Assembly (NCBI GenBank): GCA_017516825.1
Contig: JAFXBC010000011.1
Coordinates: 1,513-65,512, forward strand
Length of the DNA stretch: 64,000 nucleotides
Direction: 5' to 3'
Source of the DNA: Clostridia bacterium
GTDB taxonomy: Bacteria > Bacillota > Clostridia > Oscillospirales > CAG-382
Below the pieces are notes generated by a model. It was not told the origin of the DNA, did no database searches, and worked only from the letters and a program-made list of their open reading frames with translations. Made by a program: the position numbers and the translations under genes. Shown piece after piece: positions 61,312-64,000 of this stretch (positions are counted from its first letter, which is position 1; each line of letters starts with the position of its first letter).

Positions 61312-62559
61312 ATGTCCGCATACCGTGAGTTGATCAAAAATTTCGGGCGGATCCGCGCCTATATGCGGGAGTTTTACGTCTACGGCTTCAAGCACAGGGA
61401 GCAGTACGCCGCCAAAAGCCCCCGCTCCTACGACGACGAGCGCCGCCGGGTGGAAAGCTGGCTGGGGGATCACATGGGCTTCGTCCGCACCCCCGAGGGG
61501 AAGAACGTGTTCCTTTCCATCGACAGCCGCAGAATGGATCACAATCCCCTGTATAAGGCCTGGAAGGCGAAAAGCTTCACCGATGGGGATATCACTTTGC
61601 ATTTTATCCTGCTGGACATCCTGCATACTCCCGAGAGGGCACTTTCCCCGGGGGAGCTGTTACAGATCATAGACAGGGAGTATCTTGCTTCCTTTCAAAC
61701 GCCCATGGCATTGGACGAATCCACCCTGCGTAAGAAGCTGAAGGAGTACGTCTCCGAGGGGATCTTGACCATGGAAAAGCAGGGGAAGCGGGTGCGTTAC
61801 CGCCGTGCGGCAGACACCGTCGCCCTCCCGTCCCGGGACGTGCTGGATCTGTTTTCCGAGATCCTGCCCTGCGGTGTCATCGGCTCTTTCCTGATAGACC
61901 GTACCGAGGAACGGGACAGCCCCTTCCGCTTCAAGCACCACTACATCACGGGTACCTTGGAAAGCGATCTGATGGCCGTTTTGTTTGACGCCATGGGGAA
62001 GGGGTCTTCCGTGACGGTTACCAACGCCGCAAGGCGTACGGGAGAGCCCAAGCGGGTACGGGCGATTCCCTTGCGGATCTACGTCAGCGCGCAAAGCGGC
62101 AGGCAGTACCTGGTGGCCTACGTGCCGGAACAAAACCGCATCCGCGCCTTCCGTCTGGACTATCTTTCCGCCGTAAAGCTTGAAGAACCCACGCCCCGCT
62201 TTGGGGAATTGCGGGCAAAGCTGGATGCTATGGAGCCTTTTCTTTGGGGCGTGAACCTGAAGGACGGGAGCGGAAAAACGGAGAAGATCTCCTTCACCGT
62301 GAAGGCGGGGTACAACGAAGAATACATCGTGGACCGTCTGCAGCGGGAAAAACGCACGGGGCAGGTGGAGTGCCTGGAAAACGGGCTGTACCGCTTTTCC
62401 GCCCAAGTGCAGGACGCAAGAGAGCTGCTTCCCTGGATCCGTACCTTCTTATGCCGCATCGTGGATTTTGAATGCTCCAATATCGGCGTGAAGGAGCGGT
62501 TTTTGCGGGATCTGAAGGCCATGTATGCGCTATACGGCTTGGGAGGTGATTCGGTATGA
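61312..62559 (+). CDS. WYL domain-containing transcriptional regulator (wHTH + WYL + C-terminal extension)
   Basis: wHTH-like LSPGELLQIIDREY...TLRKKLKEYVSEGILTMEKQGKRVRYRR. The WYL core is SGRQYLVAYVPEQNRIRAFRLDYLSAVKL. Confidence 0.7.
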   Translation: MSAYRELIKNFGRIRAYMREFYVYGFKHREQYAAKSPRSYDDERRRVESWLGDHMGFVRTPEGKNVFLSIDSRRMDHNPLYKAWKAKSFTDGDITLHFILLDILHTPERALSPGELLQIIDREYLASFQTPMALDESTLRKKLKEYVSEGILTMEKQGKRVRYRRAADTVALPSRDVLDLFSEILPCGVIGSFLIDRTEERDSPFRFKHHYITGTLESDLMAVLFDAMGKGSSVTVTNAARRTGEPKRVRAIPLRIYVSAQSGRQYLVAYVPEQNRIRAFRLDYLSAVKLEEPTPRFGELRAKLDAMEPFLWGVNLKDGSGKTEKISFTVKAGYNEEYIVDRLQREKRTGQVECLENGLYRFSAQVQDARELLPWIRTFLCRIVDFECSNIGVKERFLRDLKAMYALYGLGGDSV

Positions 62560-63467
62560 TCTTCCGTGAATATTTTTCTGTCTATTACCGCACCGTGGGG
62601 AAGCTCCTGGAGGCGTTGCAGACGGGAACTCCCACGGAGAAGGAGCTTCAGGCCATCGTGCGGAGGTACGCCTTCGAGGAAAGCGCCGCCGTCATTCTCC
62701 CCGCCTTAAAACAGGGGCAGTGGCAGTTGATGAAAGAAGATTTGACCACGCCCATCCGTCACACCCCCACCATGCCCTTGACCTTGATAGAAAAGCGTTG
62801 GTTGAAGGCGGTCTCCCTGGATCCCCGTATCCGTCTGTTCGATTTTTCCGCAGAGGGGTTGGAGGACGTGGAGCCTTTGTTCACCCCGCGGGACGTTCGT
62901 GTGTTTGACCGTTACGGTGACGGCGACCCCTATGAGGACGAGACCTACCGCCGCCATTTCCGTACCGCCTTGGAGGCGGTGAAGACGGGAAAGCCGTTGT
63001 TCGTCCGTATGAAGGGGCGGAAGGGCAACGACATTTGTGCCGTTTGTATGCCTTACAAGCTGGAATACTCCGAAAAGGACGATAAATTCCGTCTCCTCAC
63101 CCGAGGTAACCGTTACGTCACCACCCTGAACCTGGCAAAGCTTACGGAATGCTGCTTCTACGAAGGTGTTTGGCAGAACCGTCGGAGCAGGGAACAGCGG
63201 GAGCAATACGCCGTTGTGCTGGAGATCCACGACCGCCGCAACGCCATGGAGCGGGTGATGTTCCATTTCGCCCACTTCAAAAAGCAGGCGGAGATGATAG
63301 GGCGGGAAAAATACCGTCTCACCCTTTGGTGCGACAAGGAGGACGATATGGAGCTTGCCATCCGCATCCTGTCCTTCGGCCCCATGGTAAAGGTTTTGGA
63401 GCCTGCACCCATGGTGGATCTTATCCGAAAAAAGTTGATCATGCAGAAAAACTGCGGACTCATTTGA
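62556..63467 (+). CDS. second WYL-like regulator (paralogous partner)
   Basis: Overlaps the first by 4 nt. Degenerate WYL-like core is PYKLEYSEKDDKFRLLTRGNRYVTTLNLAKL. The WCX-like end is AIRILSFGPMVKVLEPAPMVDLIRKKL. Confidence 0.6.
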   Translation: MIFREYFSVYYRTVGKLLEALQTGTPTEKELQAIVRRYAFEESAAVILPALKQGQWQLMKEDLTTPIRHTPTMPLTLIEKRWLKAVSLDPRIRLFDFSAEGLEDVEPLFTPRDVRVFDRYGDGDPYEDETYRRHFRTALEAVKTGKPLFVRMKGRKGNDICAVCMPYKLEYSEKDDKFRLLTRGNRYVTTLNLAKLTECCFYEGVWQNRRSREQREQYAVVLEIHDRRNAMERVMFHFAHFKKQAEMIGREKYRLTLWCDKEDDMELAIRILSFGPMVKVLEPAPMVDLIRKKLIMQKNCGLI

Positions 63468-63485
63468 GAGTTCGCAGCTTTTTTT
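63452..63485 (+). terminator. strong intrinsic terminator of the WYL operon
   Basis: 10-bp stem CTGCGGACTC / GAGTTCGCAG (one G.U) with the stop codon in the loop, then C + T7. Confidence 0.8.
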
Positions 63486-63507
63486 CCGTGTTTTTACAGG
63501 AAAACCA

Positions 63508-63516
63508 TGGTAAACT
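63508..63516 (+). promoter_or_regulatory. extended -10 element TGgTAAACT (no good -35)
   Basis: Same TGnTAAACTG form as the promoters at 8002-8011 and 53968-53977. Confidence 0.35.
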
Positions 63517-63519
63517 GTG

Positions 63520-63860
63520 CTTGCAAGAGGGAAGGCGGAGCGTTTTCTCACACGCCGGGGTGCGGCGGAGGCTTTCTCCGAGCGTATTCCCAAGTCCTCT
63601 CTCTTGAAAAAGCAGGTTCGATTCCTGCGGTATGCACTCTAAAAATGCATACTCCTATGGTTTGGGAAAGCGCTCTTCGGAGCAAAAACGGTACGCGTAA
63701 GCGTGCGAGAACGTTTTTATGCAAAACCAAGGTGCTCCCGCAGAGGCGGTAAGCTTGGGGGACACGCCGCCTTTGCAGTGAAAGGATCGCCTTGCCGGAG
63801 AGAGGATACCGCATTCTTGCATAGAAAAGAGTGCTGAATCTCTCTGCCGCGATCCTTTCA
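63520..63860 (+). ncRNA. candidate structured RNA or long structured 5' leader (unclassified)
   Basis: Six or more hand-foldable helices including T-loop-like, UUCG and GNRA hairpins and a 78-nt three-helix rod. No credible ORF (see findings). Confidence 0.35.
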
Positions 63861-63892
63861 TGGAAGCACCCTTCAGGGAAGGAAGAAAAGTG

Positions 63893-64000
63893 ATGTTTTG
63901 GAAAGACAGGAAAAAATTCAGAAAGAAGATCAGCGCCGCCTTTCCGGCCTGCTACCGAAAGGACGTGACGGCGGTGTTGAGACGTCTCCTTCCCGGGGGA
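63893..64000 (+). CDS. unknown protein, N-terminal 36 codons only (runs off window)
   Basis: GGAAGGAAG RBS, then ATG 63893: MFWKDRKKFRKKISAAFPACYRKDVTAVLRRLLPGG... Confidence 0.35.
   Translation, partial: MFWKDRKKFRKKISAAFPACYRKDVTAVLRRLLPGG

Follow-up and report, generated by a model that had tools for sequence, protein, structure and literature searches.

The stretch of DNA analysed here (the window) is a 64-kb segment of contig JAFXBC010000011.1 of a Clostridia bacterium, and coordinates refer to it unless they follow a handle beginning with L, which denotes longer contigs or the loci of relatives. Near its downstream end, two WYL-domain regulators are followed by a strong terminator, an element at 63488-63892 in which only short, unconserved open reading frames (ORFs) occur, and the ribosome-binding site and start codon (ATG at 63893) of a further gene. 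A first-pass annotation, made from the sequence alone, had placed a structured RNA between the WYL regulators and an unknown gene and had suggested an extension of the contig. Five longer contigs with identical DNA (L001-L005), retrieved via the second WYL protein, extend the window downstream and give the gene order RNA, unk198, Band_7, RtcB, with Pfam matches for the last two. The neighbours named in the annotation are in place, but the constant partner of the RNA is the unk198 - Band-7 - RtcB cassette rather than the WYL pair. The element is non-coding and encodes a conserved, structured RNA, which is transcribed and is linked to the Band-7 gene across many genomes. The known hosts of the locus are gut-metagenome Clostridia. 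It is laid out as follows:

63452-63485, plus strand: terminator of the second WYL gene (stem 63452-63477 and T-run), as annotated earlier and recovered by a terminator scan
about 63523-63872, plus strand: the whole RNA, about 340 nucleotides (nt), multi-domain
63877-63895, plus strand: ribosome-binding site GGAAGGAAG and ATG (63893) of unk198, seen in the longer contigs L001-L005
from ATG 63893 (L001 11338-11934), plus strand: unk198, a 198-amino-acid protein, first gene of the unk198 - Band-7 - RtcB cassette
L001 11956-13056: Band-7/SPFH (slipin, stomatin-type) protein, 366 amino acids
third cassette gene: RtcB RNA ligase, 402 amino acids

The earlier statement that this stretch lacks a credible ORF stands. 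An 81-amino-acid ORF at 63507-63752 has its start codon within the -10 box of the promoter described below; the same ATG in L008, a relative with 78% identity, opens a frame of 53 amino acids only, which diverges after about 30 residues, and the ORF has no Pfam match. Judged by its sequence, it is not a gene. On the plus strand the element folds at -163.9 kcal/mol, compared with -132.3 +/- 5.5 kcal/mol for dinucleotide shuffles (z = -5.77, with 0/100 shuffles equally good), and on the minus strand at z = -4.64; together with covariation in relatives, the plus-strand fold bears out the functional structured non-coding RNA that had been proposed. The Rfam search recommended at the time gives no confident match to a known family: nothing reaches a gathering threshold of Rfam 15 across the whole window, and nothing meaningful appears at E<=10 over 62500-64000. 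A weak minus-strand match to 'Plastid-ycf2' is merely the reverse complement of the T-arm at 63612-63628. ARAGORN finds no tRNA or tmRNA in the window, and Rfam at gathering thresholds on 16 relatives returns ordinary tRNAs and one group II intron only. The RNA consists of a 5' part, a tRNA-like core, a variable region and a 3' domain, with the following elements, all on the plus strand:

63534-63556: hairpin P0 (GGCG...CGCC), seen by eye in the window and L008
63558-63590: 5' stem-loop with a near-invariant GGUGC...G(Y)GUAUNCC helix (G.U, U-A, G.U, C-G), from alignment A6 of 52 sequences
63591-63606: hairpin CAAG UCCUCUCU CUUG in the anticodon-arm position, equivalent in position to the anticodon-arm mimic of relatives
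63607-63611: 5-nt variable-loop-like linker AAAAA
63612-63628: T-arm mimic GCAGG UUCGAUU CCUGC
63629-63653: closed acceptor-stem-like hairpin of 8 base pairs (bp) with loop CUCUAAAAA, showing compensatory changes relative to L008
63654-63666: D-arm-like element CCUA UGGUU UGGG, its stem 92.7% paired
63672-63683: short hairpin GCUC-UUCG-GAGC, its stem covarying at 4/4 pairs
63684-63718: variable-region hairpin AAAAACG/CGUUUUU enclosing GUACGC-GUAA-GCGUGC, in the nearest group only
63731-63870: 3' domain, in which helix P1 encloses hairpin Pa (63740-63776) and the rod (63777-63861)
63731-63738 with 63862-63870: long-range helix P1, GGUGCUCC with GGAAGCACC
63789-63796, 63804-63811, 63834-63838 and 63846-63850: near-invariant unpaired motifs of the rod, GCCUUGCC, GGAUACCG, CUGAA and GCCGC

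All helices drawn by hand in the first-pass annotation are present, that at 63612-63628 being a canonical T-arm, and the hairpins at 63672-63683 and 63740-63776 are as described there. Several details have changed. The helix placed at 63630-63652 exists but has 8 bp and spans 63629-63653; the hairpin at 63684-63718 with its inner helix 63691-63706 exists and shows a compensatory change from A-U to G-C, but is conserved in one subgroup only; and the rod is present and supported by covariation, but the family register of its middle helix lies one step off the drawn one, leaving GGAUACCG unpaired. Four elements had been overlooked, namely the 5' stem-loop, the hairpin at 63591-63606, the D-arm-like element at 63654-63666 and the long-range helix of 63731-63738 with 63862-63870. 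The covariation check that had been suggested reveals compensatory changes in the stems across homologous loci.

A covariance model of the tRNA-like core (R1), built from 20 seeds, has a single match in the 64-kb window (63611-63684, 56.4 bits, E 1e-11); at E<0.01, about 50 loci have one match each, upstream of Band-7. In an alignment of 46 such matches, which is model-fitted and hence biased toward the structure, 93.5% of cells are paired versus 73.6% in shuffles, and 16/20 pairs covary, among them 7/7 in the acceptor. The T-arm stem covaries as well (e.g., GC/AU at pair 3 and CG/UA at pair 2) and is directly followed by a hairpin of 4-13 bp and unrelated sequence in 57/58 RNAs. The D-arm has the family consensus GCCA GYGGWU UGGU, with canonical UAGCUCAnnGGUnAGAGC forms in L054, L075, L078, L081, and L089. 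The loop of the hairpin at 63672-63683 alternates between UUCG and GAAA among relatives, and in Bacteroidota a full anticodon arm with a 7-nt loop is found there. The anticodon-arm position 5' of the T-arm is occupied in relatives by a mimic with a CUGUNAA loop, while the loop in the window is not anticodon-like. Read from these alignments, the core is a circularly permuted tRNA mimic in the order hairpin, 5-nt linker, T-arm, closed acceptor, D-arm.

Two other folds of the core were considered and rejected. ARAGORN calls a tRNA-Asp and a tRNA-His in L017 and L022, using a non-permuted fold in which an upstream GYGUAUG is paired with the strand after the T-arm; this fold is rejected because the closed hairpin is found in all lineages, even where the upstream strand cannot pair, and because, in cases where the two alternatives differ, it is the local D-arm that is favoured. 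An upstream GCCAG could also pair at long range with UUGG to give a YrlA-like stem closure, but members with canonical D-arms speak against it. A second weak match to the core model (L012 5061-5122, minus strand) is a tRNA/tmRNA-like 3' fragment (T-arm, CAUCUCC and GCCA) just downstream of RtcB, which is unrelated to the family RNA and may be an integration-site remnant. In many relatives, the variable region holds a second T-arm-like hairpin (GGGGUUCAAMUCCCC), which stands after GGCAAUCG... and lies 20-45 nt before the T-arm (L010, L015, L016, L036, L037, L038, L043, L061, and L064), which suggests repeated capture of tRNA-derived pieces.

The domains on either side of the core are supported independently of the core model. 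In the 5' stem-loop, 94.5% of cells are paired over the 52 sequences, versus 81.3% in shuffles and 24-61% in slid controls, and pairs 24-49, 25-48, and 38-42 covary; it is capped by a small hairpin that covaries and that reads GGAG GCUUU CUCC in the window. Hairpins equivalent to P0, such as GGUG...CACC, precede the 5' stem-loop in relatives when inspected by eye. The rod was aligned by sequence only (alignment A5, MAFFT, 40 RNAs), and RNAalifold on this alignment gives 38 pairs, with compensatory changes in 35/38; 88.2% of cells are paired versus 62.6% in shuffled alignments (0/500) and 36-45% in slid controls, and double-change cells number 406 versus 126 expected. The rod loops have the family consensus GCCUUGYC, GGAUACCG, CUNAA, and GCCGC with constant motif spacing; the window copy is 29 nt shorter than the consensus and misses an inner GCCARAAG...UUUCCGC hairpin. 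P1 is built from dissimilar sequences in relatives (GCAAUUACUCG/UGAGUGAUUGC, GCACUUCCCC/GGGGAAGUGC, GUGGAUUGCUCG/CGAGUAAUCCAC). The variable hairpin is common to L008, L013, L014, L016, L018, L022, L030, and L048 only, again with compensatory changes, and other lineages have different hairpins in its place.

The distribution of the RNA follows that of the Band-7 gene. For the Band-7 protein, homologues at E<=1e-10 number more than 6,000, and scanning one genome per species yielded 80 loci, 76 of them with at least 600 nt upstream of Band-7; most belong to Clostridia and some to Erysipelotrichaceae, Paenibacillus, and Bacteroidota. By tblastn on the 80 loci, a WYL pair lies upstream in 47-51, RtcB downstream in 50, and a homologue of unk198 in 7. 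Upstream of Band-7 the T-loop motif occurs in 74/76 loci, the rod motif in 60/76 and the 5' stem-loop motif in 56/76, with a constant geometry of about -400, -320, and -150 nt relative to the Band-7 start; an offset of about 640 nt is added in loci in which, like in the window, unk198 lies in between. Loci that fail a strict T-arm search still hold variant forms of the RNA. Matches to the rod motif on 50 viral contigs are due to chance, the tRNA-like module being beside none of them. RNAs of this family go with the Band-7 family in Clostridia, Erysipelotrichia and Paenibacillus, and also in Bacteroidota, where the 3' domain is a different one.

Three features of this synteny are informative. 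The gene adjoining the RNA varies, being unk198 in the window and in five other loci (L014, L027, L030, L038, and L047) and Band-7 elsewhere; in L074-L078 the RNA has an RtcB-like gene on one side and Band-7 on the other; and in L009, which is 88% identical, the RNA (about 63525-63870) and the Band-7 gene are both gone, while the WYL pair, promoter, ribosome-binding site, unk198, and RtcB are kept. All three associate the RNA with Band-7 rather than with regulation close to the promoter. Within L009 5923-6620 the RNA is cleanly deleted and Band-7 is separately absent; unk198 has a frameshift near its 3' end (182 amino acids called) and RtcB follows directly.

Independent support for a functional link comes from Anabaena, where loss of repression in a trcR mutant affects slipin, rtcB and a tRNA array together, repression reportedly being relieved under translational stress (PMC10272220). 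In the Bacteroidota relatives, ordinary tRNA genes stand 2-3 kb upstream of Band-7 in arrays of 5-12 (L079 830-1623; L081 689-1792; L084 1789-2829; L089 550-1780), which recall the stress-induced Anabaena tRNA array co-regulated with slipin and rtcB (PMC10272220).

The RNA is transcribed in gut communities: contigs of 157-331 nt cover it in seven gut metatranscriptomes, as follows:

63479-63809: contig of 331 nt
63582-63738: contig of 157 nt
63523-63765: contig of 241 nt
within 63607-63812: four contigs of 180-279 nt from strains 88-95% identical

In the same runs the flanking WYL genes and the start of unk198 are nearly uncovered, with short pieces that mostly continue into unrelated sequence, and this contig-level picture suggests that the RNA is more abundant than the neighbouring genes. 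Transcription probably starts near 63523, where one metatranscriptome contig begins, contig ends being weak evidence for transcript ends. The DNA in front of this position is conserved, with the following features, all on the plus strand:

63470-63490: 3' half of the terminator, T-run and CCGTG (GTTCGCAGCTTTTTTTCCGTG), kept as sequence in about 40 Clostridia loci, including those with a different upstream stem
63508-63516: extended -10 box TGGTAAACT, with a TGNTANNNT match at the same distance in 35/52 relatives
63520-63527: conserved palindrome CTTGCAAG, 3' of the -10 box

The extended -10 box, correctly recognised in the first-pass annotation, has the conserved form TGGTAAAAT or similar. As GTTCGCAGCTTTTTTTCCGTG is conserved at the sequence level, it may also serve as an operator or -35 region. 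Across the same 40 or so Clostridia loci the order corresponding to window positions 63470-63527 is GTTCGCAGCTTTTTTTCCGTG(A), 15-20 nt, TGGTAAAAT, 3-5 nt, and the palindrome CTTGCAAG; this arrangement looks like operator sites of the WYL pair overlapping a terminator, the operator role being a putative one.

The cassette proteins are characterised to different degrees. For unk198 no family could be assigned, as it has no relative in Pfam, NCBIfam or the PDB; its close homologues number only 9, to which tblastn adds matches of 29-53% in seven loci. Its AlphaFold model is of low confidence (predicted local distance difference test score, pLDDT, 64) with a mostly helical fold, and Foldseek returns nothing for it at E<=0.001. 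The gene is optional and is placed before or, as in L025, after Band-7. In the Band-7 slipin, about 150 N-terminal residues lie outside the Pfam SPFH model, with no Pfam or PDB match before residue 150 or so, and this extension appears to repeat the first SPFH strands three times (ENQRGLLFKNGKY / QLALHYVNGKF / QKARLYFNxKF, consensus). This architecture would make it a non-canonical SPFH protein of the cytoplasm. Neither a TROVE/Ro60 gene nor a reverse transcriptase gene occurs within +/-10 kb of the element. In place of RtcR, it is probably the WYL pair that acts as damage-sensing regulator.

Taken together, we consider it fairly probable that the RNA is a Y-RNA-like cofactor, i.e., an RNA subunit of a Band-7/RtcB repair system which derives from the operon transcript and acts in trans. 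This reading is the best supported one because of the linkage to Band-7, the lack of a terminator or expression platform, and the size and near-invariant loops, which are typical of protein-bound RNAs; the processing, the protein partners and the cofactor role of the RNA are what we infer beyond these observations. The RNA would be transcribed jointly with unk198 - Band-7 - RtcB from the extended -10 promoter just past the terminator of the WYL pair and would then be excised, like the Y RNAs of the rsr-yrlBA-rtcBA operon, to act in trans. In Salmonella and Mycobacterium, Y RNAs are indeed processed from an operon transcript (PMC4201824). Proteins could bind at the internal loops of the rod and at the 5' helix rich in G.U pairs, with a Band-7 oligomer as the prime candidate, while RtcB or factors that handle tRNAs might recognise the tRNA-like surface of the tRNA-shaped module. 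The RNA could thereby scaffold, target or gate the ligation of damaged tRNA or rRNA.

Several observations weigh against a subunit that acts in trans as a complete tRNA mimic. In most loci the RNA has the position of a 5' leader, which leaves room for a role in cis. The ends of the metatranscriptome contigs at 63479/63523 and about 63798-63812 are probably assembly artefacts, the cluster at 63798-63812 coinciding with the variable rod apex and thus probably reflecting a branch of the assembly graph. The window copy is a reduced variant, with no anticodon-like loop, a short degenerate D-arm and a shortened rod, and the RNAs of L025 and L034 are without the acceptor and D elements, so that full tRNA mimicry may not be essential.

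A leader or sensor in cis is the most serious alternative, though we rate it as unlikely: a tRNA-shaped 5' untranslated region would be bait for tRNA-damaging nucleases or for RNase P/Z, and its cleavage, or its re-ligation by RtcB, would alter the stability or translation of the unk198 - Band-7 - RtcB message as a feedback from RNA damage. The RNA does lie between promoter and first ORF in most loci, and the terminator scan finds no terminator between it and the ATG of unk198; anticodon mimics, which are treated below, would fit such a bait well, and regulation of rtcBA by damaged tRNAs has been described for Salmonella (PMC7790460). However, the RNA is internal to the gene cluster in L074-L078, it was lost along with Band-7 in L009 while RtcB and the promoter were retained, about 340 nt in three conserved domains are large for a leader, the window copy lacks an anticodon-like loop, and no expression platform with alternative pairing was found. 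The same position in L074-L078 and the lack of a terminator before the ORF speak against the riboswitch or leader which had been listed among the first options.

A more remote proposal, which we regard as improbable, is that the RNA or its fragments are a ligand or decoy sensed by the adjacent WYL regulators, closing a regulatory loop. The ligands of WYL domains include nucleic acids, the WYL pair directly precedes the RNA in 47-51/80 loci, and operator-like DNA around the promoter is conserved; yet the RNA persists where no WYL pair is adjacent (e.g., L021, L024, L054, L063, L065, and the Bacteroidota), and where the pair is divergent the RNA is still on the strand of Band-7. Finally, there is next to no chance that the element is debris of a decayed tRNA gene or integration site, a real gene for the 81-amino-acid ORF, or the template RNA of a reverse transcriptase as once suggested: although a perfect T-arm is the expected leftover of a tRNA 3' end and L017 and L022 have an ARAGORN tRNA call at this position, this group of explanations is already contradicted by covariation of the non-tRNA-like parts in more than 40 genomes and by a position and strand fixed relative to Band-7, the ORF frame is not conserved, and there is no reverse transcriptase gene within +/-10 kb and no retron or other Rfam match.

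A further, more far-reaching reading takes in the anticodon-like loops of the family. Among the anticodon-like heptaloops in 58 RNAs, 17/61 read GUN (GUC 9, GUU 4, GUA 2, GUG 2), whereas about 0.9 are expected and none of 200 shuffles gives more than 4, an excess which is not a clean probability because the sequences are related. CUGUNAA heptaloops recur at several positions of the family RNA (L013, L014, L015, L018, L019, L023, L027, L035, L037, L046, L048, L059, L064, L081, and L089), with none in the window or L008. GUC, GUU, GUA, and GUG are the anticodons of the queuosine-family tRNAs (QUN), which are the targets cut by colicin-E5-type nucleases. It is conceivable, and we advance it with less confidence than the subunit reading itself and short of an even chance, that these RNAs form an undescribed class of large (about 340-450 nt) ribonucleoprotein RNAs, which combine a complete permuted tRNA, a 3' rod with near-invariant loops and, in many members, CUGUNAA loops mimicking Asp/Asn/His/Tyr tRNAs, and which, placed together with RtcB on an SPFH cage in the cytoplasm, serve anticodon nucleases as bait or detect them as a sensor.

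The question addressed by this locus is what the substrates of bacterial RtcB are and why RtcB travels with Ro60 and Y RNA or with Band-7 and a tRNA-like RNA. For the partner RNA of Band-7, which Rfam does not contain, the locus and its relatives supply a structure backed by covariation, evidence of transcription in animal gut communities, and a natural co-deletion of RNA and Band-7; moreover, cultured carriers exist, e.g., Oscillibacter valericigenes Sjm18-20 (L036) and Dielma fastidiosa JC13 (L051). If the RNA is a subunit of an SPFH-RtcB particle, the principle known from Y RNAs, in which an RNA tethers or gates a repair enzyme, would extend to a second, unrelated protein scaffold, and a widespread large non-coding RNA would be added to those of gut Firmicutes. 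The recurrent mimics of QUN anticodon loops suggest a link to anticodon-nuclease attack and queuosine modification.

Among known systems, the closest is a Band-7-associated tRNA-like RNA (b7a-tRNA) adjoining RtcB, which was predicted by Burroughs & Aravind (2016), as cited in bioRxiv 10.1101/312249; as that preprint summarises it, the RNA is occasionally exchanged with YrlA/Rsr next to RtcB and was never validated. The earlier statement that the element belongs to no known family therefore applies to Rfam 15, from which b7a-tRNA is absent, but not to this prediction. The window RNA is likewise found next to Band-7/SPFH in an RtcB neighbourhood and is tRNA-like, with a canonical T-arm, a closed acceptor and a D-like arm that covary, although the window copy is degenerate, and it is equally without experimental validation. 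It differs from the class, as far as the preprint characterises it, in that ARAGORN finds no tRNA in the window copy, so that there is no strong resemblance to an authentic tRNA.

The Y RNA YrlA (RF02553; Chen et al., 2014, PMC4201824; Wang et al., 2018) has in common with the window RNA the order T-arm, loop-closed acceptor, D-arm, an optional hairpin 5' of the T-arm and co-transcription in an RtcB repair operon. This was the tRNA-mimicking, Y-RNA type of the options first listed, and it is the one backed by T-arm, closed acceptor and D-arm and by a partial match in a Bacteroidota relative. In this relative (L081) the core matches positions 30-81 of the Rfam YrlA model with 32.2 bits (E 3.7e-5), below the 69-bit threshold, positions 1-29 and 82-114 being unmatched, and its D-arm and full anticodon arm match positions 10-42 of the tRNA model; neither the window nor the consensus-like Clostridial member L022 reaches the YrlA model. 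The window RNA is not YrlA, since its locus has no Ro60/Rsr (TROVE) gene, the Ro-binding helix formed from the 5' and 3' ends is absent, and it gives no match to the Rfam model, either at E<=10 or at the gathering threshold. In place of the Ro-binding helix, the strands flanking the core form separate local hairpins, and the anticodon-stem position holds separate closed hairpins; the window RNA is also about 3x longer, with its own conserved 5' and 3' domains.

With tRNAs and the tRNA-like domain of tmRNA, it shares the T-loop UUCGAUU, a GG-containing D-loop and an acceptor/T stack of 7-8 bp plus 5 bp, but it has no free acceptor end, CCA or tag reading frame, the order of its arms is permuted, ARAGORN is negative and there is no match to RF00005. 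Riboswitches and T-box leaders differ from it in that there is no terminator before the ATG, no cis-regulatory match in Rfam and no detected platform with alternative pairing, and the template RNAs of retrons and defence reverse transcriptases in that no reverse transcriptase lies within +/-10 kb and no retron matches in Rfam. The rsr-yrlBA-rtcBA operon of Salmonella (PMC7790460) is, like the window locus, an RNA-ligase repair operon with embedded non-coding RNA genes and a dedicated ligand-sensing regulator; in Salmonella this regulator is the sigma-54 CARF activator RtcR and the partner is Ro60, whereas the window locus has two WYL-domain proteins and Band-7/SPFH, and no RtcA. The window RNA thus fits the Band-7-associated tRNA-like class, as the 2016 prediction is cited, and not YrlA, tRNA, riboswitch or retron RNA. 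As a predicted class it is not new; what may be new is the three-domain architecture supported by covariation, with its permuted topology, 3' rod and GUN heptaloops, and the evidence of transcription.

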